From a virus, in the IMG/VR virus record IMGVR_UViG_3300008113_000033, positions 8,943 to 72,942 of that record: a stretch of DNA of 64,000 nucleotides, one strand, 5' to 3'. The notes below the pieces were generated by a model. That model saw only the letters and a list, made by a program, of their open reading frames with translations. It ran no database searches and had not been told where the DNA came from. The translations under genes and the position numbers were made by a program. This document shows positions 963-49,548 of this stretch, piece by piece (the first letter of the stretch is position 1; every line of letters begins with the position of its first letter).

Positions 963-1005
963 ATTATCAATTTATATATTTATTGTAAACAAATAAAATT
1001 TTAAT

Positions 1006-1321: not shown

Positions 1322-1428
1322 AATGTTGGGATGGTTTGAAACCCAAACGATTGGAAAATAAGCGCGAAATGTGTAAACGTTTGCAAACATCACACCAAAC
1401 GCGTATATACGTATAAATGTATTAAATT

Positions 1429-1620: not shown

Positions 1621-1635
1621 AATAAAAAATAGGTT

Positions 1636-2674: not shown

Positions 2675-2675
2675 T

Positions 2676-3431: not shown

Positions 3432-3460
3432 AAAAATATATTTATAATAAAATAAATATT

Positions 3461-6265: not shown

Positions 6266-6276
6266 TATTTATAATC

Positions 6277-6585: not shown

Positions 6586-6587
6586 CT

Positions 6588-8815: not shown

Positions 8816-8818
8816 AAA

Positions 8819-13200: not shown

Positions 13201-14693
13201 CTATGATATATGCTGCTAGTTCTGCTGATGATAAATTATTTTTTAATTATACTGGAGATAGTATATCTAAAATATTTAAAATAAATACTGTTGGTGGATT
13301 TATAATTGGTTCCCCAACTTTAACATATCCATTAGTAGGAGGAAAAGGATATAAATTATTTAATAAAACAAATGATCCAAACTCCCCGGGACCCGATTCA
13401 CCAAATGCAAGTAATTCAGAAGGTAATGCTTATTATTCTACTAATGGAGCTAATACATTTTCTACATACAGTATACAAGAAACAGGTAAGCAAAGATTCA
13501 ATGCTAAATTTGATATTAATGTAACATTTAATGAAACTAATCAAAGTGGATCATTTACATTTAAAATCAATAAAGTAGGTACTGCTACCCCATTAAGAGA
13601 ACTAAGTATAGCAGTAACTTCTTCATATCAATCTACCCAATATACAGATCTTTTATTTGCTGCTAAAACAAGTACTACTATGGTAACAACTGCTCCAACA
13701 AAAGTATATAATACAAATGGAACATTTGTTAAAATTTTACAACCAACTTTATTACATAAGATAATTCCATACCAATATGTTGATGGATGTTATGGTCAAG
13801 GATCATTTGCTAGAGGATTATGGGTTGAAACTCCTTATTTTGATTCAATACTTGACCCATATTATGATATACCATCTGGTAATTTTTGTAGTAATATATA
13901 TGCTTTACCATCATTTAATAGATTTTTATATGAACTCCCTGAAAATAATTTATCACAAACTTTATCTTTCAATGTGTTAACCCCAGAACAAACATTTACA
14001 TTAAATGATAAAATAACATTTGAATTTAGTGCTGGAGGTAGTGCCGGAGAATTTTCAACACCTAATTATACTGCTTCTATAAGTAGTGGAGGTGTATTTT
14101 TTAATCAATTAAGTACCAACCAAGTAGGAAGTTATCCATATGTTGAAAATATTCCAACCCCATTTATTTCAGGTTCAATAGGGATTAATACTATTGCATT
14201 TAGTAGTGAATTAAGTTCATTAAAAGATTATCAATTTGTTCCTAGTGGAAGTGGTATTCCATTTAGTGACCAAAATTCACTGTGGGGTAAATATGGGGAT
14301 ATAGATTATACTTTTTCTCCTAGTGTGGGAGATATTATGTTTATTTATTATGGGGGTACTGGAAATTTTTTCGAATCTAATATTACTGCGGTAACATCGT
14401 CAAACGGAAATCTTTTAATAAGTTTATCCCCAGATTTACCTAGTGGTTTACGATTGACATCATATGTAAATACTCCATCTCCCACAGTAGATAAATTTTT
14501 AATATTAAAAAAAGTAAATGATGAAACTAATGTAGTACTTACATTTCATAAACCTGATAATCCTACATCTTTAGGATTTTTAATTCCTGAAAATATTCAT
14601 CCGGATGTTTTAAATAATATAGATGTAATAACTAAAGAAATTAAACAAAAATTAATTGATCAAGGATCATTAACTAGTGGAGGTTCATTTTAA
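10227..14693 (+). CDS. large baseplate wedge/structural protein (gp7-like position)
   Basis: 1488 aa; RIYHNL..L.KSKGT..GL.NL...FG and MLKDFVPAR motifs typical of wedge proteins; ends in GGSF. Confidence 0.65.
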   Translation: MADNITIVGNVNSIQRISRFKTTDTNLLSINELPQNFGRKGDFIEFFVYDDNNNLIALDYDYTDYKLPTNQFLYNDNTLPEIQIDPTLDIENSGFNNGNFKSQYSFFRRKFSESNIDLFISEISEDRTEIRVNSVNLSSSDLVKEAQNLINEFTSVSYQKYYIANFFDDIQQTIINVAIDNTTDTPSVLFKLYEPLSSEILEKSTLWVTEEITEPYVFSINLDVIVIPDPLPQLRGPNFDIEIDIKQNLSTGYQTYSSLVSSLTGSSYHKVLNFMNDNSYDLNTDYTSFNNFIHFSSAKKRLEIFYDKAKQIEDYNNDITTLVNSTSLLKNTETASIKLKIDNIFKHFDGFENYLYYESSSYAWPKSGSNKPYVLLSTGSSITKLWYNNYTSSAITYDYNNLDHLYNTIPEYIKNDPDNYQPYFNFIDMIGHYFDNIWIYITSINELYNADNNLEKGVSKDLVYDALKSLGVSLYNSKGDNQFDNYITGLNSGSILFTNDFSLTSSFLNNIPKKDLLAETYKRIYHNLILLNKSKGTSVGLQNLITTFGITSSIFEPKEFGGSTKINELKGYDNDKITIQNNTIDGNVLSPFISLQNPISSSSEFTSTDLHFVDLSFSPQNQLNSRISASVAITSPTFSLDDYIGDPRLMESSSYDLLIEQQYYFTSASAAISGSIKRLDYKGFIGLVKYFDNSLFKMLKDFVPARTNTLTGVTIKSPVLERNKIKLYNPKVTEETIHEANYMVPVLSEDKDYYYDILPGNKSQFYTGELSGSYANINDTFENSNPNPYLQPTESINLNNFNHSDFNVTLNNISSSVVSNSKFKIEKLYTLSNNKIFQSTSSTEYISNAELQDSYDTLLGHQRSRYDGSKLSSITYNNYTSASANYSGDTSYGKTAAIDHNTGKIGIFTQINDTNNLFDVPLRSNVSLKYLVDVDGNLTELNKKNKRWNEIQNTFKAGQTATVALFDNQKYSDQKKTDGVKLIYSSGYSYFPMIYAASSADDKLFFNYTGDSISKIFKINTVGGFIIGSPTLTYPLVGGKGYKLFNKTNDPNSPGPDSPNASNSEGNAYYSTNGANTFSTYSIQETGKQRFNAKFDINVTFNETNQSGSFTFKINKVGTATPLRELSIAVTSSYQSTQYTDLLFAAKTSTTMVTTAPTKVYNTNGTFVKILQPTLLHKIIPYQYVDGCYGQGSFARGLWVETPYFDSILDPYYDIPSGNFCSNIYALPSFNRFLYELPENNLSQTLSFNVLTPEQTFTLNDKITFEFSAGGSAGEFSTPNYTASISSGGVFFNQLSTNQVGSYPYVENIPTPFISGSIGINTIAFSSELSSLKDYQFVPSGSGIPFSDQNSLWGKYGDIDYTFSPSVGDIMFIYYGGTGNFFESNITAVTSSNGNLLISLSPDLPSGLRLTSYVNTPSPTVDKFLILKKVNDETNVVLTFHKPDNPTSLGFLIPENIHPDVLNNIDVITKEIKQKLIDQGSLTSGGSF

Positions 14694-19769: not shown

Positions 19770-22700
19770 ATGCCATTAAGTTATTCGACAACTATTTCTT
19801 ATTTAAGTTCAGATTTTAGTTTTGCTAATGCTAAAGCCATTAATGGAACTAATAAATATAATAATAAGAAAAAAGAATTAGTAGTCACTTCAGGAGCTGC
19901 TACTTATGGATATGTTAAACTTCAAGTAACTCTTACTGGTAGTAATATTACATATGGTGCTGTTACTTTTTCTACATCTAATGGATCTCCTATATCAATA
20001 GGTCAAAATTTAGATGATATTTTCTATCCGTGTAGTTTAGGTAGTCCTAATGGGTATGAAATTCCTTTACAAGTTGGAATTCCTAAAACAATATATGTTA
20101 TTGTTAATTCTAATTCAAAAAAAACAACTAAAAAAATAAATGTTGTAACTGCTGTTGGAGTAAATACTGCAGCTTCTGTATCAATTGATATTCAATATGA
20201 TTGTATAGTACCGTTATATGAATATTCTGCTGGTGTGCATGTATATTCTCCATATGATGCTGCTAATGCATCTAAATTAACAGCTAAACTATATTCTAAA
20301 ATACAAATAGGCTCAGGAGATAGTAATCCATTCCCAGTAAATCATAAATTATGGGCTTTACCTGATTTTAGTCATCCAGCATATCCATATTATTATTTAA
20401 TTTCAGGTAATAATAATGTTATTAAAGTCGGAGGCCCATATGATAGAACCTTTGGTTTTAAAACTTATTATAAAGTAACTCATAGTGCGTGGAATAATCT
20501 TTGGGGGAAGAAACCTAAAATAGATGTAATAGAAGAAGGTCCTCAAAGTTATGAAGGTCTTACTGGTTTTCCATCATGTATAAATATGATGTTAACTGAT
20601 ATAGGAAAAGTTAAAAGTTGGTTACATAAATCAACATACACAAAACCTACATTATATCAATTTGTTACTGGATATAGCCCCATTAATTCTCAACCATCAA
20701 ATGATGATTTTTTTGCTAAATGGGTATTTAGTAATAATCAATTTTACCCACTTACTGGCAGACGTCATAATATGATTAGATTAGCGTCTGGGTATAAAAA
20801 AGGATTTGCTTCCGATGTAGCATTTAGTAATAATTTTGAAGTATCTCATTTAGTTGCTGGTGGTATGGCTTTAGGAGCTGCTGCTTTTGCTGGAGTATTA
20901 TTAGCTAAACTATTAACATCAACTGTTGCTGCTTCAATATCAGCAGGAGCTGGTACTGCTGCTGCTGCTGCTATAGCTGCAGGATCATCTTCATCTCCAG
21001 TTGTATCAACAGCAGTTGCTAATATTATTGCTAATATAACTTCTACTCTTACAGCTGCTGGAATATCTTCAGCAGGTGCTGTTGCTGGTACGGCAATAAT
21101 TCCTGTAGCTATTTCAAGTATTCCATATGTTACTATTAACAACTTAGTTTTATATCAGGCTATAGGACAAATAAATATGTCAGCGGGTACTTCTTTTTTT
21201 GGTGCTATTTCTGATGTTGCTACTACTACTTATGTTAATATGTTAGCACCAGCTAATTTTTTAACTTCAGCTACAGCTCAAACAACTACAGCCGCATCTT
21301 CTGCTGTGTCTTCAGGAACTCAATTAACAGCTACCTCAGGTACTTCTGCAAGTTCAGGAGCTGCAGTAGCAGGAGCAGCTGCTGCTACAGTAGTTCTTAT
21401 AGTAATATTAATTATAATAGCAATTATTATAATAATTCAATTAAATGAAAAAATTGAAAGATGGATAACTGAAGAATGCAAATCCTTTATATTCCATTAT
21501 GGTCAAAACCCATATATTGAAATAGGAGATACATTACAATACAAAACAAGATTTCCATCTCTAAGTAATCCAAGAGATTATTACTTTCCAGATGATTCTT
21601 TTGGACTTTTTACCCAAACAAATAATGGATATTATTGTGATGGTGTTTATTTTTATCAACAATCTGGAGGTGTTATTACAACTAAAACATTATCATCAGC
21701 TGATACTTTAATTTCTGAGGATCCTAAAATTGTAACTGGATTTGAAGATTCATTAGATGTTTTAAATCCAACAACAATACTTGAAGTTGATAAACTTCAT
21801 TTACTACCATATGCATCGGGTAAACCAATGCAATATACAGCTTCAGTACCTATATATTTTAGTGATTATCATGAAAATATAATTAATATATATCCTAAAG
21901 GTGGATTGCAAACAAAGATTGAAACAAAAACAATGTATGTTAAAGCTAGTTCATCTTTTAGTTATACTAGTTCAGCTGCTGCAAATTCCTCATCTCTTGA
22001 TTACTTAAGTTCATCATTAATTCCTTACGTATCATCATCCCAACCTACATACTACCCATTATATCCTTCAGGATCTACACCACCAACTCCTATAAGTATA
22101 ACATCTTCATTTTTTCCATTAATACCAATAATTGTAACAGGTTCAATTAATGTAACATCTTCATTAAATGCATTTTTTACTCATGAGTTAAAAATTGAAA
22201 ATAATCCAACACCAGTTAGTATATTTTATGATAATACTAGTAGTATTAGTGCAAGTATAGGAAAGAAATTATATTACGATGATTATGGTTATTTTGGTGC
22301 TTTAGATGGATATTACTCAGTTTCAGGTTCAGAAGTCCCAGGATCATCAGATTATAGAGTTTTCTTTAAAACTAGTAAAGGGGTAATAGATAATATATAT
22401 CGTATGCCTTTATCAAGCAGTACAACTGTTACTGATCAAGCAAGTAGTTCTTATTCATTAGTTACTAATTATCTTGATTATTCAAGTAACTGGTATTTAA
22501 TAAATAACGATATTGATCTATTAAACACAGATTATGCTAACATTATCAGTTATAGTTCTATGGGGCAGATGTACCCAGAATATATAACATCTAGTTCTCT
22601 TTATAGTTCTAATGATATGCATCAATTAGTTTCTAGAAGAGGATTTATATCAGGAAGTATGACTGGTACTGGTTCATGTAATAATAATTTTTATTTGTAT

Positions 22701-25004
22701 GATTCTAACTTTTCAACTGCTAGTATAAATGAAGCTCCTTCATCTAATTTTTACAAACCGTGGATTCCATTAAATGAAAGACCAGCTTTCTCATATTCTC
22801 CAACATCATCTATTCAGATAGATATAGAAGAAGTATGTTTTACATCTGGATCAAACCCTTCAAGTTCATTATATGGATTTAACATATATTCACGAAGTAA
22901 TAATTTTTTACGTTCTTTTGGTACTGATGTTTACTTAACTACAAATATATATAAATCAGGAAGTGGATCACCTATAATTTATAATATAACAGCATCAGAT
23001 GCATCTCTTACAGTAAATTATACTTCAAGTTTATCTTACATAACATTTGGTGAAGGATATGAAAGTAGATGGTTTGTTCCTTACGATAATAGAATATCAG
23101 TAAATGATAATGTAACCTCAATATCAATATCATCACTATCTACAGGTAGTGCAGTTTGTAAAACAAACTATATTATTGGAAGTTTTACTAATTGTAATAA
23201 CCCAACTCCTACAGCAACTCCTACATCTACTCCAACTCAAACACCAACATCTACTCCTACAGCAACTCCTACATCTACTCCAACTCAAACACCAACATCT
23301 ACTCCAACATCTACCCCTACAGGTACAATTCCTGGAGCAACTCCCACTTCAACTCCAACCGCTACACCATTAGATCCAACACCAACTGCTACACCAACAG
23401 CTACTCCAACTGCTACTCCAACTGCTACTCCATTAGATCCAACACCAACTGCTACACCAACATCAACTCCTCAAGCTACAGCTACTGCTATGGCTACTCC
23501 AACTGCAACTCCAACTGCAACATTTTCACCAACCCCAACTGCTACTCCAACTTCAACTCCACAAGCCACAGCAACTAACACAGCTACACCAACTGCGACA
23601 CCAACTGCTACATTACCTCCATCTAGTGCATTAACTATGTGGGCTAGATTAGCTTCAGCAACTGATCCATTACAAGGATGGAGTACATCTTTTGAGGCAT
23701 GTGCTGATACTGGTACCGAGGTTACAGTATTTGTAGATTCTACTGGATATACTTCAATATTTGATGCTTATACTGATGGTAAGATTTTATATACTACTAA
23801 TGCTATTATAACACCATATGTTGGTGGAGGAACTTACTTTAAAGCAGTTGCAAATAATTCATTTGGTGATTACTTTACAATAGATAATTCAGGATTCATT
23901 ACTGTTTATAGTGCTTGTTCTGCTCCTCCTACAGCAACCGCGACTCCAACTGCTACACCAACTCAAACACCAACAGCAACACCAACTAATACTCCAACAT
24001 CTACCCCAGCTTCATCAACATATTATGAATTATCTTCATGTGTTGAGGTATTGTATAAATTTACTACTATTCCTCCTGATGGAATAAATCAAAGATATGT
24101 ATTACCATCAGAACCAGGAGTACATTACATATATAATGGTAATTCAGTATTCCAATACCCAGCTCCTCCAACATATGATAGTAGCTTCCAGAAAACATCA
24201 TTTTATAACTGTGCTGATCCTACCCCTACTGCAACACCAACATCAACACCAACAGCCACACCAACTCAAACTCCAACTGCTACTCCAACTGCAACACCAA
24301 CAGCTACACCTTTAGCTCCAACTCCAACAGCAACTCCAACAGCTACTCCAACTGCAACACCAACTCAAACTCCAACAGCAACTCCATTAATACCATCTCT
24401 TAATATAGATTCAGGATGCGCTGGATATACAGGAACTGGGTATATTAATTTAAGTGCAAGTGGTGGATCTGGAAATTATACATTCCATATCTCAAATACA
24501 CCTCCTCCAGGATATAATGGAGTACAAAATGCTTCTAACTTAGGAAATGGAACATATTATGTTGGTGTTTATGACAATGTATATGGTACTTCATCAGTGA
24601 CAACAAGATCTATTAGCTGTGCGGCCGCTCCAACACCAACTGCTACTCCAACTGCAACACCAACAGCTACACCTTTAGCTCCAACTCCAACAGCAACTCC
24701 AACAGCTACTCCAACTGCAACACCATTAGATCCAACACCAACAGCTACACCAACAGCTTTACCTCCAACACCAACAGCTACACCAACAGCAACTCCAACT
24801 GATATACCAGTAAATTGCCAGCAGTATACTTTAACTAATAGTGATTTAGAATATTCTGATTATTATGATTATACAGCATGTGATGGAACTGCAGTATCAG
24901 GTACTTTAGGAGCTGGAGGAGGAATGACTATATGTGCTAGAATTTCTACAGTATACGCAGGAGGTGCTATTATAATAGATGGCCCACAAGGAACATGTTC
25001 TTAA
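19770..25004 (+). CDS. 1744-aa multidomain virion protein with hydrophobic segment, Pro/Thr linkers and Cys modules
   Basis: Ala/Gly/Ser-rich hydrophobic block ending [17 protein letters not shown]; four TPT tracts separating small beta domains; SprB-like [25 protein letters not shown]. Confidence 0.75.
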
Positions 25005-27523: not shown

Positions 27524-27556
27524 TATTTATAAGTATATTATACTGTATATTAATTA

Positions 27557-28432
27557 ATGAAGATAGCAATTTATCCAGGCGCGTTTAAACCACCTCATAA
27601 AGGTCATTTCCAAGTAGTTAAACTATTAGTTGATAGAGATGATATTTCTGAGGTGGTAGTTGCCGTTTCATCTAAAGAACGTGGTGGTGTATCAGTAGAA
27701 CAATCATTAAAGATTTGGGAATTGTATACTAATATATTAGGTCCTAAAGTTAAAGTTATATCTATTGAAGGTTCTCCTGTATATTATACATTATCATCGA
27801 TTAAAAACAACCCAGATCAAGATTTTGTAGTTGTATTCGGTAAAGAAGAAAGTTCACGTTTTGCTTCATTAGCTGATAATCCTAAAGTAGAAGTATTTGA
27901 TGCTGGTAATTTTGAAAATATATCAGCAACTGACTTTAGAGATGCTATTCAAGCACGTAATGTAAAGCAAATAGCTAATTTTTTACCTGCTGGTATTACA
28001 ACACATAAATTCTTTGATGTATATGGTAGTGTTTATAATAACAATGAAGAACCAATGAATGAATCTTTATATGAGAATCAATTCCCATTATTGAAAGAAT
28101 TTGTTGGGTACTGCAAAGAATATTTAAAATTAAAATCATTACCTCCATTAAAAATGTCTTATGATCCTACAACAGCAGAATCAAGACGTTCATTTGGTGG
28201 ATACGATCCAAATAATAAAAGTATTGAATTGAGTGTAGCTAATCGTCATCAAGCTGATGTTTTTAGAACATTAGCACATGAATTAGTTCATTATAAGCAA
28301 GACATACAAAATAGATTAACACCCGAATCTGGCAAAACAGGTCACCCACATGAAAATGAGGCTAATACTGCTGCCGCTATAATGATGAGAAACTTCGCTC
28401 AAATGCGACCTGAAATGTTTATAGTAAAATGA
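27557..28432 (+). CDS. cytidylyltransferase-like (HxGH) nucleotidyltransferase fused to a HExxH metallopeptidase-like domain
   Basis: YPGAFKPPHKGH and ISATDFR in the N-half; RTLAHELVHYKQ..ENEAN in the C-half; linker MNESLYE. Confidence 0.8.
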   Translation: MKIAIYPGAFKPPHKGHFQVVKLLVDRDDISEVVVAVSSKERGGVSVEQSLKIWELYTNILGPKVKVISIEGSPVYYTLSSIKNNPDQDFVVVFGKEESSRFASLADNPKVEVFDAGNFENISATDFRDAIQARNVKQIANFLPAGITTHKFFDVYGSVYNNNEEPMNESLYENQFPLLKEFVGYCKEYLKLKSLPPLKMSYDPTTAESRRSFGGYDPNNKSIELSVANRHQADVFRTLAHELVHYKQDIQNRLTPESGKTGHPHENEANTAAAIMMRNFAQMRPEMFIVK

Positions 28433-29664
28433 TAAAATTATTTGACATACTACAAGAAATAACTGGAAAACCTAAAGCAATATTTTTAGCTGGTCCTGCT
28501 GGATCAGGTAAAACATATACTTTAAAACAATTACTTCCAGTTGAAAAATATCAAGTAATAAATGTAGATGATACATACGAGGAATTACTTAAATCGTCTG
28601 GTTTAGGTACTAATTTAAAAGATTTCGGTCCTGAAGAATTATCTCAAGCAGCTAAATTAATGGGGCGTGCTCAAGGAGCAACTAAAGAGAAATATGCTAA
28701 AGCACTTGAAGGATTAAATAACGTTATTATTGATGGTACTGGTGCTGCATCTAAACCATTATTTAAAAAGAAAGCAGAATTAGAAGCATTAGGATACGAA
28801 ACAATGATGTTAATGTTGTATGTTTCACCTATGACATCTTTAAAGCGTAATGCTGAACGCGAACGTTCATTATTACCCCAAATCGTATTGCGTACTTGGA
28901 GAGATACAAATAAAAATATAGATCTATATCGTCAAGAATTTGGTGATCGTTTTATTTTAATTAATAACGATCCTGAAGATGCTAATAAAACATTTAATCC
29001 TGCTGAAGTTAAAAAATTATATTTTGACACAGCTAAATTCTCAGGCAAGCCTAAAACACCAGAAGAACAAGCTAAAGTAAAGGCAGATGCTGAACAATTA
29101 AACCAAGATATAATTTCATTAGTTAAACAAATACCCCAAACAGATACACTAGATTCAGCTAAATCTAAAATTGCTATGTTGGCTGAAGTGCAACAACAAT
29201 ATAAATTATATTGTGATATGGATGGTGTATTAGTTGATTTTGAACGTGGATATAATGATTTAACAGGTAAACAAACACCTGGTGTTGATTCAACATATGA
29301 TAAAGATGATTTTTGGTCTGCAATCACTAAAGCGGGTGTCAAATTTTGGGCTAATTTAAATTGGATGTCTGATGGACATCAATTATGGGATTATATCAAC
29401 CAATACAATCCTAAATTATTAACTGCACCATCACGTGAAAAATCATCAGAAATAGGTAAACAAGAATGGGTAAATAATAACCTACCAGGTACACCTGTTG
29501 TATTTAAACAAGCAAAAGATAAAAAAGATTTAGCAGAACCAAATGCTATATTAATCGATGATAGAAAAGATAATATCCAACAATGGATAGATGCAGGTGG
29601 AATTGGTATTCGTCATATATCTACAGAATCAACAATAAAACAATTACAAAAATTAGGGTTATAA
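28429..29664 (+). CDS. zeta-toxin-like P-loop kinase fused to an NT5C-like HAD 5'(3')-deoxyribonucleotidase
   Basis: GPAGSGKT, INVDD, IIDGTG and RNAERER; then YCDMDGVLVDF, LTAP and ILIDD..NI.QW...GGIGI. Confidence 0.82.
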   Translation: MIKLFDILQEITGKPKAIFLAGPAGSGKTYTLKQLLPVEKYQVINVDDTYEELLKSSGLGTNLKDFGPEELSQAAKLMGRAQGATKEKYAKALEGLNNVIIDGTGAASKPLFKKKAELEALGYETMMLMLYVSPMTSLKRNAERERSLLPQIVLRTWRDTNKNIDLYRQEFGDRFILINNDPEDANKTFNPAEVKKLYFDTAKFSGKPKTPEEQAKVKADAEQLNQDIISLVKQIPQTDTLDSAKSKIAMLAEVQQQYKLYCDMDGVLVDFERGYNDLTGKQTPGVDSTYDKDDFWSAITKAGVKFWANLNWMSDGHQLWDYINQYNPKLLTAPSREKSSEIGKQEWVNNNLPGTPVVFKQAKDKKDLAEPNAILIDDRKDNIQQWIDAGGIGIRHISTESTIKQLQKLGL

Positions 29665-29665
29665 T

Positions 29666-30253
29666 ATGTCAAAAGAAACATTATTAAAAAAAGAATTTCA
29701 AAAACGAGACGTACAACGTATTCGTAATTTACTATCAGGTAAGCAAGGTGACGCTACTCAAACACAAGTAGGATATACTACTAAACATATTGACCGAAAT
29801 GAAGGAGATATTTGGGAAGAATTTGGTAGAAAATGGACTGTAAAGAACGGTATTAAAATGAGTGTTACTAAATTAGATAGAGCTAAAAAAGCTGTATTTG
29901 CACCTTTATTATGTCCAAGTTGTTCTAAACCAATGAAAACTAAATATGATAAAAAAATGTTTTTTATTCATAGTCAATGTTTTGATTGTGTAATTAAAAT
30001 GGAATCACAACTTAAAATAGAAGGTAAATATCAAGAATACGAAGATAAAATCATTAAAGCTAATGCTAATTTTGCATTAGATGAATTCGTAAATGGATTT
30101 GATTCATTTTTAGATTCGATGGATTCAAATAATGGATTTGTAACTGAACAAGGCGATATTGAAGATTGGCATGTAAAAGCTTTAGATAAACAGAAAATAC
30201 GCGAACAAGTAATGAAAGACGTAGAAGAATCACGTGCTAGATTAAATAGTTAA
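29666..30253 (+). CDS. hypothetical protein with Zn-finger-like motifs
   Basis: CPSC and CFDC motifs; EGDIWEE.GRKWT.KNG. Confidence 0.75.
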   Translation: MSKETLLKKEFQKRDVQRIRNLLSGKQGDATQTQVGYTTKHIDRNEGDIWEEFGRKWTVKNGIKMSVTKLDRAKKAVFAPLLCPSCSKPMKTKYDKKMFFIHSQCFDCVIKMESQLKIEGKYQEYEDKIIKANANFALDEFVNGFDSFLDSMDSNNGFVTEQGDIEDWHVKALDKQKIREQVMKDVEESRARLNS

Positions 30254-30291
30254 TATTTATGGTCATAACATTTTTATCTCTTCTTAATAAA

Positions 30292-30462
30292 ATGCATCAA
30301 TCAAATGAGCTAAATGCTGCCGGGGTAGCAACAACGTGTATAGCATTATTTAATAGCTTTTTTTCTATGTTAAATCCTGTACTTACTGGTCTATTTTATA
30401 TCCTATCTATTGGGTGGTTAGGAGTACAGATATATTATAAAATTAAACGTAACGGAAAATGA
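30292..30462 (+). CDS. small membrane protein (holin-like)
   Basis: Two hydrophobic segments and a basic C-terminus; start moved to ATG 30292 because ATATTTAT overlaps the ORF-track start at 30259. Confidence 0.55.
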
Positions 30463-30854
30463 AAAAATCTGAACTTAGAGAACTTATTGCTTTAGAAATA
30501 AAAAAAGCTAAAAAAGATTATGATGGAGATGGTAACATAGAATCTTCCCAAGATGAATATATGGGTTCTCGTGATAAAGCAATCAAAAAGGCAATGTCTA
30601 ATGAAGATTTAGATGTAGGCCATCAAGATGATGAACCAGGAATGCTTAAAAATGATTTAGCTAGAGCTGCTAAAATGGCAGCTATGTTATATAAAAAAGT
30701 AGATGCTTACGATAAGATAGGTGGTGAAGTAGATTTTCCACAATGGTGGCAAGAAAAAATAATCAAAGCAAAGGGTTATTTACAAAGTGCATTTGATTAT
30801 TTAGATGGAGAAGAAATGGTAGCCCAAATAGATAATATGAATCAACCTAAATAA
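30459..30854 (+). CDS. putative internal head protein
   Basis: [13 protein letters not shown] leader; DYDGDG EF-hand-like loop; FPQWWQEKI domain. Confidence 0.65.
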
Positions 30855-31111
30855 TGATTAAATTAGTTAATATATTAAGTGAAGTATCAGAGGTATCACC
30901 TCCATACATGTATTCTCCAGTAGGATTTGGATGTCATGTATGTAAATTCTATTATAAACAAGATGATAAACATATGTGTGCAAGCACAGATTATCAAGAA
31001 TATATGGGTACTTCTGAATTAGTTGATAATGATGGAAATCAAATAAAAGATCCTTCTAAATGGTGCTCTAATTGGTTCTTACCAAAACAAGAAGAAAATG
31101 GATCAGAATAA
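30854..31111 (+). CDS. small Cys-rich protein with [10 protein letters not shown] leader
   Basis: CHVC..C..WCSNW. Confidence 0.7.
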   Translation: MIKLVNILSEVSEVSPPYMYSPVGFGCHVCKFYYKQDDKHMCASTDYQEYMGTSELVDNDGNQIKDPSKWCSNWFLPKQEENGSE

Positions 31112-32648
31112 AATAAAATCTATAGTTGAAAGTGTTATAATGGAAAAAAAGCTTTGTCCTAAGGGTAAAGCTTATTATAATCGTCGTATAGCTGCGGGTG
31201 AAGTACCATCTGCTTATTTATCAGGCCGTGCAGTTAAAGTGTGTAAAGGATTAATGGAAGGAGATGAAGAAACAGTTGAATGTGAAAACTGTGGTTGGGA
31301 ATGGAATTTAGAAGACGGCGGTAAAGAACCATTTCTTTGTCATAAATGCGGACATGATAATACTGAAAAATATGATATGAACGAATCGCTACGTGATTGG
31401 TTTAAAAAGGAAGATTGGGTTCGTATCGATACACAAGGTAATATAACTGGTCCTTGTGGTACAATGAAAAAAGGACAAGCAACAACTCGTTGTTTACCTC
31501 GTGCTAAAGCAAATTCATTAACAAAAGCTGAACGTGCTGCTACTGCTCGTAAAAAAGCAGCTGCTGATCGTAAAGGCGATCGCGTTGTTCCAAATACAGA
31601 TAAAGCTAAAGTACGTTTAGAAAGTAAATCTCCACTATTATGGATTCCTATTTTACAAGCCGAAAACGAGGAAATAGAACGTACAGCAGATGAATTAGGT
31701 CTACCATATGATGTAGTATATAATTCATTCGCAAGTGGTAAAGAAGTCACATTAACTGATGAAATGTGGAGTCGTTTAGAAAACACTGACTCATACGATA
31801 TAAATTCTGAGGAAGAAGCGATTGAATTGGCGCAATATTACGGTAAAGATATTCAAAGCATATTAGCCGCTGAAAAAACACCTCCCGCGTTGATTCTCCA
31901 ATATTCTCCAAATAAATATTATTTAGTAGGTGGTAATACTCGTTTAATGGTTGCTAGAGCAAAAGGTATAAACCCACAAGTAATTTTAGCTACAATTGAA
32001 CCTTCAAACAAATATGCATACCAAGATGTAAATGATATTGGAGCAGATTTAAATGAAGATTGTGGATGTGATGGTCCTAAATTAATATTAAAAGAAATTA
32101 AAAATTTACCTGTATTATCTGAAGGATTAAAACACCATATCAAAGAAGGATTACCATTAATTCATAATATCTACAGACCATTATCTAAAAAATATTTTGA
32201 ATTATTCCGTGAAGCACGTGAATTATATAATAATGGATTAATTTCAGTATCTGAAGACGATATTGAATTATTAGAATCAAATATTGGTGAGATTGATATC
32301 TACGAAGGTGTAAATGTACCCTTAGATTATCCAATATCTGAAGAAGAATTATTAGCTGAAGCAGTAAAAGCAGGTAAGAAAGTAGCAATTGGAAAACCAA
32401 AACGTGGTGGATCTAAAAAATTCTATGTTTATGTCCGTAAACCAGGTGGTGGAGTTAAAAAAGTATCATTTGGTGATACAACTGGATTACGTGCTAAGTT
32501 GAATAATCCACAAGCACGTCGTGCATTTGCTGCTCGTCATGATTGCAAAAATAAAAAAGATAGAACTAAAGCATCTTATTGGTCATGTCGTTTACCTCGA
32601 TATGCTAAATTATTAGGATTTAAAACAACATTTAGTGGATTTTGGTAA
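31098..32648 (+). CDS. multidomain protein (basic Cys modules, Zn ribbon, ParB-like domain)
   Basis: LCPKGKAY..PSAY; CENC..CHKC; LRDWFK.E.WV..PCG..RCLP; YYLVGGNTRL (ParB-like); KKFYVYV..VSFGD..RRAFAARH.C..YWSCR. Confidence 0.75.
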   Translation: MDQNKIKSIVESVIMEKKLCPKGKAYYNRRIAAGEVPSAYLSGRAVKVCKGLMEGDEETVECENCGWEWNLEDGGKEPFLCHKCGHDNTEKYDMNESLRDWFKKEDWVRIDTQGNITGPCGTMKKGQATTRCLPRAKANSLTKAERAATARKKAAADRKGDRVVPNTDKAKVRLESKSPLLWIPILQAENEEIERTADELGLPYDVVYNSFASGKEVTLTDEMWSRLENTDSYDINSEEEAIELAQYYGKDIQSILAAEKTPPALILQYSPNKYYLVGGNTRLMVARAKGINPQVILATIEPSNKYAYQDVNDIGADLNEDCGCDGPKLILKEIKNLPVLSEGLKHHIKEGLPLIHNIYRPLSKKYFELFREARELYNNGLISVSEDDIELLESNIGEIDIYEGVNVPLDYPISEEELLAEAVKAGKKVAIGKPKRGGSKKFYVYVRKPGGGVKKVSFGDTTGLRAKLNNPQARRAFAARHDCKNKKDRTKASYWSCRLPRYAKLLGFKTTFSGFW

Positions 32649-32908: not shown

Positions 32909-33538
32909 ATGATTACTAAATCAAATTTCTTTATTATCATTATATTGGTGTTGATCGGTGTGATTGTGGTTCAACAATGTACGTCTAATAATAGTACTGA
33001 AAATCCAATAATTAAGGTTGATGGTAAAAAATATGAACTACTAAAACATAAAATCGATACTGTTGTTGTAGATCATTATAAAACAAAATACATTAAAGGT
33101 TCAGATATATATCATGAAACTATAGTTGAAAAAGAAAAACGTGTTGAAGTACCTGTTTATTTAAAAGGTGATACTATTAGAATAGTTCAAGATTATCATA
33201 AAAAAGTACTATATAAAGACAAATTAGTATTAGATAATGATTTAGGTTCAATTGAAGTAACAGATACTATATCAATGAATAAAATTATTGGACGTAAATG
33301 GAACGCTCAAATTAAAGAACGCACAATTACTGATACTAAAATAGTAAAAGAACTACCTAAAAATCAAGTATATATTGGCGTAGGTGGGGTTGTTGGTAAT
33401 TCATTAGTATTAGCTGGTCCAACCTTATCACTGAAAACGAAAAAAGACAATATTTATGGTCTGAACGTATATGTTGACAACAATTTAAATAAATATATTG
33501 GGGTTAACTTAGCTTGGAAAATAAAACTAAAAAAATAA
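32909..33538 (+). CDS. membrane-anchored protein, possibly lysis/spanin-associated
   Basis: N-terminal TM helix followed by Cys (VVQQC); beta-rich C-terminus ending YIGVNLAWKI. Confidence 0.6.
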   Translation: MITKSNFFIIIILVLIGVIVVQQCTSNNSTENPIIKVDGKKYELLKHKIDTVVVDHYKTKYIKGSDIYHETIVEKEKRVEVPVYLKGDTIRIVQDYHKKVLYKDKLVLDNDLGSIEVTDTISMNKIIGRKWNAQIKERTITDTKIVKELPKNQVYIGVGGVVGNSLVLAGPTLSLKTKKDNIYGLNVYVDNNLNKYIGVNLAWKIKLKK

Positions 33539-33981
33539 TGACTCAGAAAGAACAATTGCGTATCATGGTTAAACAAATGATCGCAGAAGCCGTTTCTCAC
33601 CGTATCGCTCAAATCGATGAAGCTGGTGATATTGCAGCTAACGAAGCAAAAATGGTTCGTATTCAGCAAGAATATAAAAAAGCAGGTAGCGTAAAACAAT
33701 TAATGGAAAAAGTTAACCTATCTCACTACATTGGCGAAAAACTATATGCTAAAGTAATGGAAGAGATGGATAAATCAATAAATGAATATGAAGGTGCTCG
33801 ATTGGAACTTGAGGAAAAAATGTCAGGAGGTAAAGACGCTGATAAAAAAGATAAAAAGAAAGGTGCTAAGTCTGACAAAAAAGACGAGAAGCCAGAGGAA
33901 AAAGATGAAGTTCTAGAAACTGAAAAAACAATTGCTGAAGAACCAGTTGTTGAATTAGAAATTGATGCAACTCAATTATAA
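33538..33981 (+). CDS. hypothetical protein with LRIMVKQMIAE leader
   Basis: TAATG overlap places the start at 33538; charged C-terminal tail. Confidence 0.7.
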   Translation: MTQKEQLRIMVKQMIAEAVSHRIAQIDEAGDIAANEAKMVRIQQEYKKAGSVKQLMEKVNLSHYIGEKLYAKVMEEMDKSINEYEGARLELEEKMSGGKDADKKDKKKGAKSDKKDEKPEEKDEVLETEKTIAEEPVVELEIDATQL

Positions 33982-43449: not shown

Positions 43450-44304
43450 ATGTCTAAATTAAAAAATTCTAAATACAAAAACACTGGCATATTATTTGAG
43501 CTATTAGTGCGCCAAATTGCTAGTGATATTTTGTCTAATAAAGAACCACACGCGGCTACTTTAGTTAAAAAATATTTTTCAAATACAGAAATAGCTAAAG
43601 AACATAAATTATATCAAACATTAATTAATGTACAAGCATTAGCTGAATCAAAAGCAGATAGCTTAGTTGAAACTATCTTAAAATTATCTGAAAAATTAAA
43701 TAAAACTGCTTTACGTAAGGAAAAATATAACTTGATTAAAGACATCAAGGAAAATTATAACTTAGAAGATTTTTTTAAAGCAAAAATTCAAAATTATAAA
43801 ATTAACGCTGCCATTTTTAATTTAATGGAAGCACATACATCAACTGAATTTACTGATCCTAAATTAGTTATTGATAATCGAGTAACATTACTTGAATTTT
43901 TAACTAAAAAAGCAGTAGATAAATCAGTAGTTAAAGATCAAGTATTAGAAGAATATTCTAAGCAAGATAAGAGTACTCGTATGATGATTTATAAAATGGT
44001 AGTTGAAAATTTCAACTCAAAATATACAGATCTTCTACCAGAACAAAAAACATTATTGTCTGAATTCATCAAGAATATATCTAATACTGTATCATTAAAA
44101 GAATATGTTAATAATCAAATTCAAAATGTTAAATTAGAATTAGAAGTATTAACATCTAAAATTACAGATAAGAAAATTCAAATTAAATTATCAGAAGTAA
44201 ATAATATACTAAACATGATTCCTAAATCAGAAAATGTATCTGATGATGATGTTTTGAATTTGATGAATTACTACGAATTATTACACGAGTTAAGAACAGC
44301 ATAA
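43450..44304 (+). CDS. hypothetical head-region protein
   Basis: 284-aa helical ORF between portal and protease (KYKNTGILFELL). Confidence 0.75.
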   Translation: MSKLKNSKYKNTGILFELLVRQIASDILSNKEPHAATLVKKYFSNTEIAKEHKLYQTLINVQALAESKADSLVETILKLSEKLNKTALRKEKYNLIKDIKENYNLEDFFKAKIQNYKINAAIFNLMEAHTSTEFTDPKLVIDNRVTLLEFLTKKAVDKSVVKDQVLEEYSKQDKSTRMMIYKMVVENFNSKYTDLLPEQKTLLSEFIKNISNTVSLKEYVNNQIQNVKLELEVLTSKITDKKIQIKLSEVNNILNMIPKSENVSDDDVLNLMNYYELLHELRTA

Positions 44305-44780
44305 TGGAAAAATTACGTGAATTAATACGTCAAGCAATTGCTAAAGTTTTAGATGAAGAAAATGCTACATCTGGAGGCGAAGCATATATGACTAAATTTG
44401 CATTCTCTAAAGGTGGTAAAAACCGAGCTACTAAAACCGCTGAAAAGTTAGGATTTAAAGTAGTTGGTAATCGTCCAAAAACAGGAAAAACATACGAATT
44501 TGTTAAATACGAAGGACAAGATCCGATTAATGAGGTATCATATCGTTCATTTAATAAAACAATTTCAGAAGTTACTCCTGAACGTAAAATTTCAAAAGCA
44601 ATATTAGGTATTAAAAAACGTTTACGTGAAGTTAATCAAATAGTTGATTATAGTATTCGTTTACGTGAAGAAAATAGCCTAACTACTGAAAATTATCTTA
44701 CTAATTCAGTCCGCGGATTAGAAGAAATATCAACACGATTAACTGAATTAGACAAGAAAATTAAAAATTTAAAAGAATAA
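44304..44780 (+). CDS. putative internal head protein
   Basis: MEKLRELIRQAIAKVLDEE leader; INE site; coiled-coil end. Confidence 0.65.
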   Translation: MEKLRELIRQAIAKVLDEENATSGGEAYMTKFAFSKGGKNRATKTAEKLGFKVVGNRPKTGKTYEFVKYEGQDPINEVSYRSFNKTISEVTPERKISKAILGIKKRLREVNQIVDYSIRLREENSLTTENYLTNSVRGLEEISTRLTELDKKIKNLKE

Positions 44781-45298
44781 TGAAAAGTATATTCGATCAA
44801 TATAAAGCATTAAACGAAGGAACATTAGGTCAAGCTCAATTTTTACGTAATGTAAAAATGGCATTACCTAAATTTATTTCTAACACAACAACATTTGGTG
44901 ATGCTGTTAGAATTTTAAAAAACAAAGGTATTATTTCTGAAGTAAAATCATCTCCAATGGAGTATGGTATGCCGAATGATTGGTGTAATCCTCAAGAATA
45001 TAATTTAGGAATGCGCTATGAATTAGATAAAGGTACTGAAGAATTAAAAGCTGATAAGATCGTTTGCAAAAACTTAAAAGATAATGCTGCTTATTACTCT
45101 CAACTTCATTTAGCTGGATATGATGAATCAGCAATGAAAGTTGATCGTAAAAAACGTACTGATTTATCTATTGAAGTTAAAGGTGATAACTTTGTAGACA
45201 CTGCAAATGGTGTTAAAAAAGTAAAAATGGATAAATTGACTGAAGATGAAATGATCATTTTAGTTGGTCGTATCTTGAACGAAAGATCTAATGGATAA
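44780..45298 (+). CDS. putative internal head protein
   Basis: LNE, ISE, LTE and LNE sites; GMRYEL..KNL.DN..YYSQL. Confidence 0.65.
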   Translation: MKSIFDQYKALNEGTLGQAQFLRNVKMALPKFISNTTTFGDAVRILKNKGIISEVKSSPMEYGMPNDWCNPQEYNLGMRYELDKGTEELKADKIVCKNLKDNAAYYSQLHLAGYDESAMKVDRKKRTDLSIEVKGDNFVDTANGVKKVKMDKLTEDEMIILVGRILNERSNG

Positions 45299-45920
45299 GC
45301 AATTATTAATAGAAACAGCCTTATTTACCGCTACTCCTCAATCATTGAAGGAGTCGATGATGAATCCAAACGGTAAAATGTTTGTAGAAGGATTGATACA
45401 AATGGCTGAAACCAAAAATGGTAATGGACGTGTTTATCCATACGAAGTATTAAAGCGTGAAGCTGATAAATACCTACAAGGACCAGTTAAAGAACGTCGT
45501 GCATTAGGTGAATTAGACCATCCAGACTCTCCTGTTATCAACTTAAAAAATGTATCACATAACATTGTAAGTTTATATTGGAAGGGGCGCGAATTACACG
45601 GTAAAATTGAATTACTGCCTACACCATCGGGTAATATATTAAAAGAATTATTTAATAACAATATCACCGTAGGTATCTCATCTCGTGGTATGGGTTCTGT
45701 ACGTCAAATTGGTGAAACAATTGAGGTACAAGATGATTTTGAATTAATGTGTTGGGATTTTGTTTCAACCCCATCTACACCAGGTGCGTATATGGAAGTA
45801 GTAAATGAATCTATTTCATATTCTAAACCATCAAAAGATTATTCTAAAATAGATAGCTTAATTACTGAAATTATTTGTAACCGCACAGGATTTTGTACCT
45901 GTGATTTTGATAATATATAA
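45291..45920 (+). CDS. prohead core protease (T4 gp21-like)
   Basis: NGNGRVY, ALGELDHP, VSH, TPSGNI, GISSRGMGS and DFVSTPST motifs. Confidence 0.95.
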   Translation: MDKQLLIETALFTATPQSLKESMMNPNGKMFVEGLIQMAETKNGNGRVYPYEVLKREADKYLQGPVKERRALGELDHPDSPVINLKNVSHNIVSLYWKGRELHGKIELLPTPSGNILKELFNNNITVGISSRGMGSVRQIGETIEVQDDFELMCWDFVSTPSTPGAYMEVVNESISYSKPSKDYSKIDSLITEIICNRTGFCTCDFDNI

Positions 45921-46588: not shown

Positions 46589-46624
46589 TTTATACCCCAC
46601 TATAGTCTCAGTATTATAGTTCTG

Positions 46625-46657
46625 GTGTCTTTTCTGCAAAGAGAAGGCACTTTTTTT
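46625..46657 (+). terminator. intrinsic terminator
   Basis: GTGTCTTTTCT-GCAA-AGAGAAGGCAC-TTTTTTT. Confidence 0.85.
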
Positions 46658-46790
46658 CGCTTTGAATATATCTACATATATTTATGGCAGACTCAAATAT
46701 ACCATGTCTATATGGTATTCGATTAAATTTAAAAACCCCCATTAAGATTCATTAATAATCTTATTTCCAAAACAAAAATTAAGGACAAAA

Positions 46791-47871: not shown

Positions 47872-49548
47872 ATGAACGTACAAAGTCTTTTAGAAAGCGC
47901 AAACCCGTTCCAAGATCGTCAAGCAGAAGCTGGCAAATTAGTTGGAAAATGGGATAAAACAGGTTTATTGAAAAACCTTAAGAGTGAAAATGATCGTAAC
48001 AATATGGCGGTTATTTTAGAGAACCAAGCTAAAGCATTGGTTCAAGAAGCAAACGTAACTGGTGGAACTACTTCTATGTCAGGTGGTGCTGGTGAGAACT
48101 GGGCTGGTGTTGCTTTGCCTTTAGTTCGCCGTATCTTCGGTGAAATCGTAGCTAAAGAATTCGTTTCAGTACAACCAATGTCTTTACCTTCAGGTCTAGT
48201 ATTCTATTTGGATTTCAAATATTCAAACTTAGGAATGGGATCTACAGATGGTAAAGCTGGATTCGGAACTGCTTCTTTATATGGTAACCAAGCAGAAAAT
48301 CATCCAAACGTTAAAAACTTAGAGGTTGCTGGTGGTTTATATGGTGATGGTAGATTCGGATATTCAATCAATACTACTGCATCTGCAGGTATTGCTGGTA
48401 CTTCTGGATCAACTACTATTGCTACATTTAATTACAATTCAGCTGCTTCATCTTCAATTGGATCTTCAGCTCGTACAATTACTATCGCTTCAGGTTCATT
48501 AGTTGGTTTAGATGATAACGCTGTTAAAGCTATTGAAATTGCTTCAGGTTCAGGTGCTGGTTCAGTATCAGCTGCTAACGTAATCAATGAATTTACTACT
48601 TTGAACTCTAACGGTACAATTACTTTAGTTGTTTCTGGTTCTACAATTGGTGCTAACGCTAACCAAGTTTACACAGTAACTTATCCTAAAACTACTACTG
48701 TAGCTGCTCGTGGTGATTTTGAAGATGCTTCAGGTGCTGGTTATCCAAACTCAGAATCTACTACTCAAATTGCTATCCCTTCAGTTGATATCAAATTGAA
48801 ATCAGAAGCTATCGTTGCTAAGACTCGTAAGTTGAAAGCACAATGGACTCCAGAATTTGCTCAAGATTTGAACGCATACCACTCGGTAGATGCTGAATCA
48901 GAAGTAACTTCAATGTTGTCTAACTACATTGCAATGGAAGTTGATTTAGAATTATTAGGTATGTTAATTGAAAATGCTGCTACAACAGGTTACTGGTCAG
49001 CTGCTAACAATACATTCTGGAATGGTTCAGGATTTACAACTGTATCTGCAAACTCACAATCAGGTAATATCTCAGGATACTATAACTCTCAAGGTGAGTG
49101 GTTCCAAACTATCGGAACTGTATTGCAACAAGTTTCTAACAAAATTCACCAAAAGACATTGCGTGGTGGTGCTAACTTCTTAGTTTGTTCTCCAGCAATT
49201 GCTACAGTATTAGAATCAATCCCAGGATTTGCTACTGACGGTGATGGTGAGAAATCAGAATTCGGATTTGGTATCCAAAAAATCGGTTCATTAAATTCTC
49301 GTTACAAAGTTTACAAGAATCCATACTTGACTTCTAACCAAATCTTGATGGGTTATAAAGGATCTCAATTCCTTGAAACTGGTGCTGTTTACGCTCCATA
49401 CATTCCGTTGATCATGACTCCATTAGTATACGATCCAGAAACATTTACTCCACGTAAAGGTTTGATGACTCGTTACGCTAAGAAAATGGTTCGTCCTGAA
49501 TTCTATGGTAAAGTGTTTGTTCACGGATTAGAAACATTAGGATACTAA
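47872..49548 (+). CDS. major capsid protein (T4 gp23-like)
   Basis: LENQ, LPLVRR, VQPM..PSGLVF, KTRKLKAQWTPEFAQDLNAYH, YAPYIPL, FTPRKGLMTRY. Confidence 0.96.
   Translation: MNVQSLLESANPFQDRQAEAGKLVGKWDKTGLLKNLKSENDRNNMAVILENQAKALVQEANVTGGTTSMSGGAGENWAGVALPLVRRIFGEIVAKEFVSVQPMSLPSGLVFYLDFKYSNLGMGSTDGKAGFGTASLYGNQAENHPNVKNLEVAGGLYGDGRFGYSINTTASAGIAGTSGSTTIATFNYNSAASSSIGSSARTITIASGSLVGLDDNAVKAIEIASGSGAGSVSAANVINEFTTLNSNGTITLVVSGSTIGANANQVYTVTYPKTTTVAARGDFEDASGAGYPNSESTTQIAIPSVDIKLKSEAIVAKTRKLKAQWTPEFAQDLNAYHSVDAESEVTSMLSNYIAMEVDLELLGMLIENAATTGYWSAANNTFWNGSGFTTVSANSQSGNISGYYNSQGEWFQTIGTVLQQVSNKIHQKTLRGGANFLVCSPAIATVLESIPGFATDGDGEKSEFGFGIQKIGSLNSRYKVYKNPYLTSNQILMGYKGSQFLETGAVYAPYIPLIMTPLVYDPETFTPRKGLMTRYAKKMVRPEFYGKVFVHGLETLGY

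Follow-up and report, generated by a model that had tools for sequence, protein, structure and literature searches.

Why should a phage join unrelated enzymes and small charged proteins into single chains, and why should the joints of these chains so often end in one short motif, a hydrophobic residue, any residue and glutamate (hydrophobic-x-Glu, h-x-E)? The question is raised by three genes of one operon, 27557, 28429 and 31098, in IMG/VR virus record IMGVR_UViG_3300008113_000033, of which a 64 kb stretch (positions 8,943 to 72,942 of a 72.9 kb contig) was analysed and is called the window below. A first-pass annotation had described the three proteins as beads on a string with domain borders at protease-type sites, and all of its motifs and domains were found in place. 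We propose that 28429 and 31098, and less surely 27557, may encode polyproteins of capsid cargo that are cut by the S77-family protease of the phage head, a reading that is built on sequence comparison and to which we give an even chance of being right.

The source of the window is a T4-like myovirus. Its G+C content is ~30%, its long open reading frames (ORFs) lie nearly all on the plus strand, and it encodes a T4-type portal (Portal_T4, E=3e-67) and a gp23-type major capsid protein (Gp23, E=6e-76) in addition to large terminase, primase and exonuclease genes. The nearest named phages, Flavobacterium phage immuto, Methylophilales phage Melnitz and Pelagibacter phage HTVC008M, are all T4-like myoviruses. 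The operon with the three genes sits between a tail-fibre-like gene and the terminase gene, and its proteins, 291, 411 and 516 amino acids (aa) long, are divided as follows.

27557..28432, plus strand: gene 27557 (291 aa), an HxGH nucleotidyltransferase module (residues 1-169) followed by an HExxH zincin-like module (170-291).
28055..28075, plus strand: joint of 27557, a twin h-x-E site with MNE (167-169) and then LYE (171-173).
28429..28458, plus strand: 10-residue tag MIKLFDILQE of 28429, similar to the capsid targeting sequence (CTS) of T4.
28459..29187, plus strand: zeta-toxin-like P-loop kinase module of 28429 (residues 11-253), ending in MLAE.
29188..29661, plus strand: HAD-type 5'(3')-deoxyribonucleotidase module of 28429 (residues 254-411), with the DMDG motif at 263-266.
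31098..31145, plus strand: 16-residue leader MDQNKIKSIVESVIME of 31098, ending in IME and swapped for MIKLTEILQDIIAE or MKLSELKNIIRTTIIE in relatives.
31146..31259, plus strand: module B of 31098, basic, with two Cys (residues 17-54, net charge +7), ending in LME.
31260..31385, plus strand: module C, acidic, four-Cys and zinc-ribbon-like (residues 55-96), ending in MNE.
31386..31622, plus strand: module D, basic (residues 97-175, net charge +11), starting with SLRDWF; phrog_23735, E=4.4e-13.
31623..32057, plus strand: module E, a candidate ParB-like module (residues 176-320) with GGNTR at 278-282, preceded by VRLE and closed by LNE.
32058..32360, plus strand: module F, acidic and helical (residues 321-421), ending in LAE.
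32361..32645, plus strand: module G, very basic (residues 422-516, net charge +23); phrog_7595, E=1.9e-11.

The evidence that carries the proposal is the placement of the motif. A scan of viral contigs (IMG/VR) with the 28429 protein gave 146 relatives, 80 loci were retained (denoted by L below), and the three window proteins were compared by BLAST with all plus-strand ORFs of these loci. Seven breakpoints in the window proteins were defined independently, from the ends of BLAST segments in the relatives, and a site is present at six of them (P=2.9e-5), the exception being the joint between modules D and E (VRLE). Upstream of ten unrelated module cores the motif is found in 151 of 170 distinct 12-residue stretches, compared with 15.7% of random 12-mers from the same proteins. 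All 13 contexts before SLRDWF contain it, written as MNE, INE, ISE, IDE, MHE, LHE, LDE, LNE or VSE, and the upstream neighbours here are of six kinds, including a Zn ribbon, a Cys module, two ParB-like kinds and an N-terminal leader. The 15 contexts before KKLCPKG in relatives likewise all end in h-x-E.

The last residues of a module differ according to whether another module follows (a slash marks a joint or cutting position). Among the kinase tails, all 37 distinct terminal forms end in ..FLK-stop or ..FINK-stop and all 7 fused ones in ..MLAE/, i.e. the Glu of the joint is found in 0/37 terminal versus 7/7 fused tails. Module B ends in LME in 11/11 fused forms, and in LMS or QMS followed by GKKKKK-stop in both terminal forms (2/2). 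Module D, when terminal, ends in ..KLNK-stop or ..KFRK-stop (0/5 with the site), and when fused in ..RLE/, ..RFRE/ or ..RLEE/. Internal start codons were considered as a cause of the M-x-E forms and rejected, since the Met is swapped for I, L or V in relatives.

That homologues might shuffle modules exactly at these sites had been put forward as a check, and the 80 loci bear it out, as they do the picture of beads on a string: modules are split, permuted, inserted and fused at the joints. The kinase-nucleotidase fusion is found in 21 of the 80 loci and a stand-alone kinase (241-256 aa) in 57, two loci having no complete ORF; where kinase and nucleotidase are separate genes they are often non-adjacent. 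The gene after a stand-alone kinase is often a long chain of nucleotidyltransferase, ParB-like, Zn-ribbon or Cys module, HExxH module and sometimes nucleotidase, for instance in L023 (610 aa) and L068 (457 aa), and multi-module proteins of the relatives reach 974 aa. At the joint of 27557 relatives place ParB-like, Zn-ribbon or Cys modules and retain twin sites, e.g. PLKE-GKLNE; module E itself is located between the nucleotidyltransferase and HExxH modules in L068, L058 and L023.

In L012 and L018-L022 the 31098 modules come in a permuted order (1-56, 175-320, 93-175, 318-516), module C being missing from the L012-type proteins, and in L013 and L014 they are spread over two genes (420 + 215 aa). 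Small stand-alone forms also exist, namely D (96-97 aa, in two loci), B+D (136 aa) and C+F'+G' (178 aa). In immuto, gp099 (185 aa) corresponds to residues 331-516 (F+G) as a separate protein, and in Melnitz the F+G part forms the C-terminal end of a cytidylyltransferase protein of 650 aa. Inserts are flanked by sites on both sides (RFRE/...EIKE/ in L015, where the insert has 175 residues, LME/...MNE/ in L013 and LME/...LDE/ in L053). Every module either carries an h-x-E joint of its own or acquires one, so that modules can be gained, lost or rearranged with no change of design.

The individual assignments differ in strength. In 28429, where LQE lies at 8-10 and LAE at 251-253, the kinase matches Pfam Zeta_toxin with 36.2 bits (cut-off 22.3) and also AAA_33, has the Walker A motif GPAGSGKT at residues 22-29, and finds its best Foldseek matches in zeta/PezT structures (3q8x, 1gvn, 2p5t; E=5e-8). 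Residues 255-411 match the PHROG 5'-3' deoxyribonucleotidase (E=5.4e-30; DMDGV at 263-267), and by Foldseek human deoxyribonucleotidases (1z4i, 4yih) at a root mean square deviation (rmsd) of ~4 A. The matches of 27557 are weak. Its HxGH motif is HKGH at residues 14-17, and the module finds Pfam CTP_transf_like at E=0.0085 (16.7 bits, below the curated cut-off of 21), a PHROG cytidyltransferase at E=1e-4 and, over residues 3-77, phosphopantetheine adenylyltransferase (PPAT) in the PDB at E=1.5e-4; immuto gp088 is annotated as a nicotinamide mononucleotide (NMN) adenylyltransferase. The HExxH motif is HELVH at 241-245, with a PHROG metallo-protease match at E=7.5e-4 and a Pfam DUF6782 match at E=0.013 (15.2 bits, below the cut-off of 27).

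Protein 31098 is a chain of seven pieces with sites at 14-16 (IME), 52-54 (LME), 94-96 (MNE), 318-320 (LNE), 331-333 (LKE), 340-342 (LSE) and 419-421 (LAE). Residues 17-51, 97-172 and 422-498 each match small stand-alone PHROG families; Pfam searches with D, F and G singly gave no matches, and a PDB profile search with the 31098 alignment gave nothing meaningful. B, D and G are basic, C, E and F acidic and the enzymes near neutral. The name ParB-like, which module E had received in the first-pass annotation, is backed by the GGNTR motif and by Atlas ParB_N clusters at 0.93, and stays a lead since Pfam gave no match for the module. Module G also stands alone in podo- and siphoviruses; in siphovirus Kolga it starts M/AKYQGRTV, exactly where the LLE/ site of the T4-like relatives ends. 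As a side observation, Roseobacter phage CRP-6 gp55 (L085:1411-2100) has module G at the N-terminus of a putative head protease (Peptidase_S78_2, XkdF-like, E=7.2e-18), and the gene after it encodes a coiled-coil, scaffold-like protein.

Predicted structures agree with some of these borders. The AlphaFold2 model of 28429 has a mean predicted local distance difference test (pLDDT) score of 87.7; the tag (residues 1-12) is the sole segment below 50, and the block 251-260 around the joint is the lowest internal block (pLDDT 66). For 31098 the mean pLDDT is 49 and the predicted template modelling score 0.23, and residues 159-363 remained unmodelled, so the model is uninformative for the sites at 318-342; such a poor model would be expected of modules that are loosely linked. 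Within it a helix spans residues 3-18 of the leader, and pLDDT falls below 50 at 52-56 and 93-103, i.e. at the joints between B and C and between C and D. The sites that were tested lie in low-confidence linkers or at helix ends, apart from LAE 419-421, which lies in a predicted helix.

A further line of evidence is the N-terminus. ORFs of the 80 loci were collected by script (ATG starts, plus strand only, a simple anti-nesting rule), and the pattern M..h..hh.E stands at 161 of 1094 ORF starts, a set that includes some spurious or mis-started ORFs, as against 16 of 4299 internal Met (0.37%), a ~40-fold enrichment. This tag, with the consensus MIKLxDILxE, precedes more than 25 unrelated sequences. 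It occurs in 115 distinct 30-nt coding versions with Leu-4 written in five codons, and these synonymous Leu codons show that it is the peptide, not the DNA, that is conserved. Besides MIKLFDILQE of 28429, the window contains the tag MKLVDILLE of 51562 and a tag of the same type in 30854:

30854..31111, plus strand: 85-aa Cys-containing protein with an MIKL/MKL..IL.E tag, in the same operon.

The 51562 protein (51562-51891, 109 aa) lies among neck genes, the 30854 protein is Cys-rich, and neither of these small tagged proteins has a family match. Joints and tags were also considered as linkers for recombination at the DNA level. This was rejected, as the tag DNA of 28429, 30854 and 51562 is alike only over about the first 12 nt; short homologies may have a role in module shuffling.

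In the sections of the T4 literature cited here, targeting depends on CTS residues 4 and 7, and processing on residues 8 (L/I) and 10 (Glu) (PMC9026906). The tag of 28429 has this layout, with hydrophobic residues at 4, 7 and 8, Glu-10 and the same length; the 31098 leader is longer (16 residues), and 27557 has none. The T4 proteins start with MKTYQEFIAE (IPII/IPIII), MKTFKEF...ITE/A (IPI), MAKINELLRE (gp24), MELITELFDE (Alt) and MNEPQLLIE (gp21). A looser definition of a leader fits 15 of 88 ORFs of the window genome, compared with 4.6-5.0% of internal positions, and among the 15 are the protease, the capsid protein and one protein each at the scaffold and prohead-core positions. Zeta-like kinases of enterobacterial T4-like phages, found in 213-214 phage records, start with MKSFKQFTESTLTE/A and MTLKSFKEFITLDE/A, which is near the T4 IPI start; there kinase and nucleotidase are adjacent genes. 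Side examples are Klebsiella phage ER45 and Morganella phage vB_Mm5 (L090:517-1356, L089:517-1356), where zeta-toxin-domain kinases with an IPI/IPII-CTS-like start lie beside a 5'-3' deoxyribonucleotidase gene.

Some tagged proteins also avoid the motif inside their chains. The 57 tagged stand-alone kinases hold 44 internal h-x-E against 248 expected, a roughly five-fold depletion, the fusion kinases 70 against 141, and the 85-aa tagged family 0 against 13.9 in 18 sequences. At the level of families, the median observed/expected ratio is 0.87 for 15 tagged families and 1.15 for 100 untagged ones (p=0.027), the test covering proteins of 80 aa or more, families with at least three expected sites and tag fractions outside 0.1-0.5; one of our internal-site counts was confined to proteins of 100 aa or more.

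The enzyme that would cut these sites is encoded in the same window.

45291..45920, plus strand: gp21-type prohead serine protease (Peptidase_S77, 91.5 bits, cut-off 27).
48040..48048, plus strand: VQE in the gp23-type capsid protein (residues 57-59), aligned by MAFFT with T4 gp23 LTE65/A.

Gp21 of T4 cleaves after Glu in L/I-X-E, according to a review of Black's work (PMC9026906), and the window protease is 30% identical to it across 143 aa (E=4e-20). Its N-terminus MDKQLLIE/T has a counterpart in T4 gp21 (MNEPQLLIE/T), and the capsid-protein position aligned to T4 LTE65/A (T4 gp23 from NC_000866) reads VQE/A; gp23 of T4 loses a 65-residue propeptide, according to the portion of PMC9958956 cited here. 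As a side observation, the protease is flanked by ORFs 43450-45298 and 45920-47843, at the positions of T4 gp67/gp68/gp22. They have leader-like N-termini (MEKLRELIRQAIAKVLDE, MKSIFDQYKALNE, MDLEQIVKE), several have an excess of h-x-E (z=2.1-2.9), and PHROG and Pfam gave no match for them. Outside the head module, a 147-aa protein (33538-33981) that starts with MTQKEQLRIMVKQMIAE is rich in h-x-E (11 vs 6.1 expected; 144 vs 64.8 in its 14-member family) and resembles a scaffold or core protein degraded to peptides. A third excess (31 vs 16.9 expected, z=4.0) was seen in a 1488-aa protein of the structural region (10227-14693).

The operon begins behind a short element that recurs in the window.

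27524..27531, plus strand: promoter-like motif TATTTATA, 26 nt upstream of 27557.
3439, 6266, 14717, 27524, 37036, 37908, 38938, 41544, 43424, 50376, 53883 and 63155, plus strand: copies of TATTTATA 10-60 nt upstream of ORF starts, usually inside ATATTTATAA.

The window has 22 plus-strand copies of TATTTATA, of which 12 lie no more than 60 nt ahead of an ORF start, mostly at structural operons; besides 27557, eleven operon starts are preceded by it, including those of the portal, the prohead-core gene and neck and sheath-region genes, and it is absent from the 8.9 kb early-type region upstream of the window. The late-promoter (-10) word of T4 is TATAAATA, and TATTTATA is its reverse complement. 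TATAAATA itself was rejected as a late promoter here, as it is not enriched (27 copies vs 24 expected, only 5 on the coding strand), and TATTTATA is a candidate late-promoter element. Of a different kind is the motif upstream of ~27 small ORFs (contig 1-8900 and window 1-50), each of which follows an TTCTTAATTA-N2-TTTA...AAATAAATAAAC-type motif, distinct from TATTTATA and probably an early promoter plus leader class.

Put together, the proposed sequence of events would be the following. The genes would be expressed late, from an operon behind the promoter-like motif common to structural operons. The short amphipathic tag of the first module (MIKLFDILQE in 28429, the 16-residue IME leader in 31098) would anchor the precursor to the prohead's scaffolding core, where the activated gp21-type S77 protease would cut after the Glu of h-x-E, removing the tag and separating the modules. 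The products, i.e. the small basic Cys-containing B, D and G, the acidic spacers C and F, the ParB-like module, the zeta-like kinase and the 5'(3')-nucleotidase, would remain inside the head and reach the host together with the DNA, like IPI-III and Alt of T4.

Several observations weigh against this proposal, and some of them suit another reading, in which the proteins are uncleaved multidomain products of a hyperplastic region where small genes fuse and split, engaged in cytoplasmic nucleotide salvage or repair, with the tag as a docking, translation or stability signal and h-x-E as a tag remnant or helix cap. The total number of [LIVMF]-x-E motifs is not above chance (27557, 5 vs 6.2 in composition-shuffled proteins; 28429, 3 vs 6.7; 31098, 15 vs 10.7), the sequences in all counts are phylogenetically related, which makes the P values optimistic, and the depletion of internal sites comes mainly from three families, the other 12 tagged families being near 1. 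The joint between D and E is off-motif with Arg at P3, LAE 419-421 lies inside a predicted helix, the motif does not stand directly before the core in stand-alone F+G proteins of the L047 type, and the hydrophobic P3 before SLRDWF fits an i/i+4 amphipathic pattern and could belong to the first amphipathic helix of module D. Protein 27557 has no N-terminal tag in this phage and in 20 close relatives (its leaderless type starts MK/IAIYPG in 21 loci), and leaderless stand-alone nucleotidases (M/YIIYCDMDG) occur in 8 loci; together they suggest that some of the enzymes act in the cytoplasm of the infected cell. The immediate neighbours of the operon are the primase and exonuclease genes, outside the head module, the word late is our reading of the motif position, and the specificity of the window protease is assumed from its 30% identity to gp21. 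A kinase and a HAD phosphatase in a single chain is moreover a known uncleaved design, as in T4 polynucleotide kinase/phosphatase (Pnkp) and also PFKFB, both of which Foldseek matches to 28429 (Pnkp structure 2ia5: E=1.9e-7, ~410 columns, template modelling (TM) score 0.29, rmsd ~21 A), and the adjacency of the two genes in enterobacterial T4-like phages is the usual prelude to fusion. Our literature searches found no proteomic or biochemical evidence on these proteins or their relatives; those for virion proteomes of HTVC008M or KP15/KP27 found nothing, and supplementary tables, outside the search, may hold such data. The virion tables of Morganella phage MP1 were set aside as support, since what they list in the part cited (PMC5384007) cannot be linked to the zeta-like kinase, MP1 is not among the 99%-identity matches and the preparation also held replication proteins. 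What the uncleaved reading leaves unexplained is the module-end Glu that appears only if another module follows, the motif upstream of ten unrelated families (89% vs 16%), the sites on both flanks of inserts, the avoidance of internal motifs in tagged kinases and the 4/7/8/10 layout of a tag that is disordered relative to the kinase fold. An obligate Pnkp-like pair is also difficult to reconcile with a partner that is a separate gene in 57 of 80 loci and fused in 21, and with the TM score of 0.29. We regard uncleaved fusions as unlikely, if far from negligible.

A different cutter is conceivable as well: in the manner of polyvalent proteins, the joints might be cut not by the head protease but by the HExxH zincin-like domain, in cis or trans, before packaging or after delivery. 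Protein 27557 and many relatives do hold HExxH within chains that have ParB-like and other modules, and Iyer et al. 2017 predict autoproteolytic release for MPTase proteins, citing P1 DdrB, in the part of their paper cited here (PMC5512222). Against this, 28429 and 31098 have no HExxH in the same chain and would require trans action, the joint motif is the known S77 signature, present too at the maturation positions of the capsid protein and the protease, and the HExxH matches are weak (15.2 bits for DUF6782, cut-off 27); such self-processing seems improbable to us. Finally, short [LIM]-x-E words are common in Glu-rich, AT-rich phage proteins (1.8% per position in the proteome, ~11 expected in 516 aa) and the first-pass annotation may have singled out those that happen to fall near domain borders, which together with the chance-level totals could make the whole pattern a coincidence. 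The placement at independently defined breakpoints, the 170 contexts, the contrast of terminal and fused tails and the tag enrichment leave very little room for this, and we consider it scarcely credible. The part of the first-pass annotation that foresaw release during head maturation stands only in part: module shuffling, the Glu pattern at joints, the CTS-like tag and the gp21-type protease support it, while the untagged 27557, the leaderless nucleotidases, the off-motif joint and the uncleaved kinase-HAD layout do not.

If the proposal of cleaved capsid cargo is correct, it may extend beyond the window. We tentatively suggest, at a little short of even chances, that widespread marine T4-like phages have a plug-and-play capsid-cargo system in which the tag MIKLxDILxE sends more than 15 unrelated families into the prohead, precursors give several products, cargo is gained by insertion between sites, and the enterobacterial kinases are injected internal proteins too. 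T4 capsid targeting would then represent a way of delivery that is general, evolvable and in use among abundant ocean phages, not a T-even curiosity, and the polyprotein design would be one not described for tailed-phage cargo in the literature searched. The proposal would predict, in a form open to test, the mature termini of about a dozen proteins, and would name the zeta-like kinase, the nucleotidase, the ParB-like module and the basic DNA-binding modules as candidate effectors of the first minute of infection. It would also offer a natural grammar of tag and joint for loading foreign proteins into phage heads, and would single out a large family of kinases, from T4-like phages of Klebsiella, Enterobacter and Aeromonas, as likely to be packaged.

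Two other genes of the window deserve mention. The protein at 19770-25004 (1744 aa) combines a hydrophobic stretch rich in Ala, Ser and Thr with long linkers of Pro-Thr-Ala repeats. It is a probable tail fibre or adhesin in which the linkers would be mucin-like spacers, and its gene coincides with a strongly negative GC skew. The 148-aa protein at 25322-25768 matches an 'NAD synthetase' PHROG (E=1e-33) as well as homing-endonuclease PHROGs, the first label looking doubtful, and its gene is in synteny with immuto gp100.

It is instructive to compare these genes with systems that are already known. The internal proteins IPI, IPII, IPIII and Alt of T4 are closest in logic. In the sections of the sources cited (PMC9026906, PMC9958956, PMC3012670) they have an N-terminal propeptide with hydrophobic residues 4/7/8 and Glu-10 and a gp21-family protease in the same genome, their cargo consists of small very basic proteins and an enzyme, and their genes are scattered outside the head cluster and vary among relatives. 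The tag sequences differ, however (MIKLxDILxE here, MKTYQEFIAE in T4), and T4 cargo consists of single proteins that lose a terminal propeptide, whereas here unrelated modules are chained with sites at nearly every joint and up to six predicted products. Compared with T4, the cargo would gain the zeta-like kinase, the nucleotidase and the ParB-like module.

The ejection proteins of giant phages provide a second parallel. In SPN3US, the substrates of the protease gp245 are internal head proteins that are processed by this gp21-related enzyme at a short Glu-ending motif and ejected into the host, as far as the portions of PMC10052503 and PMC7411985 used here describe. The cleavages identified there all give N-terminal propeptides, protease self-cleavage aside (cited part of PMC10052503), and these substrates do not release several functional modules per chain, unlike what is proposed here. 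With T4 PseT (Pnkp) the resemblance concerns 28429 alone, whose chain begins with a P-loop kinase and ends with a HAD-fold phosphatase; its halves best match zeta/PezT kinases and 5'(3')-deoxyribonucleotidases, and the fusion exists in just 21 of 80 loci.

In architecture the closest parallel is with the polyvalent proteins. Iyer et al. 2017 describe, in the sections cited here (PMC5512222), a zincin-like MPTase as the hub domain of phage and plasmid proteins with 2-15 domains, whose partners include ParB-like and zeta-toxin-like kinase domains. Shared features are the several unrelated effector-type domains per chain, the frequent HExxH partner, although the family matches of this domain in 27557 are weak, the mosaic, recombining architectures and the predicted delivery with DNA and proteolytic release. 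The chains of the window are smaller (291-516 aa), have an HxGH instead of a Pol-beta nucleotidyltransferase and add a HAD nucleotidase. The sections cited make no mention of head-protease-motif joints or tags, and a chain with the head-protease motif at its joints was not found described in the literature searched. It is these joints, together with the CTS-like tag, that point to the prohead protease over self-processing. The logic is that of the CTS-targeted internal proteins of T4, and the mosaic architecture is that of the polyvalent proteins.

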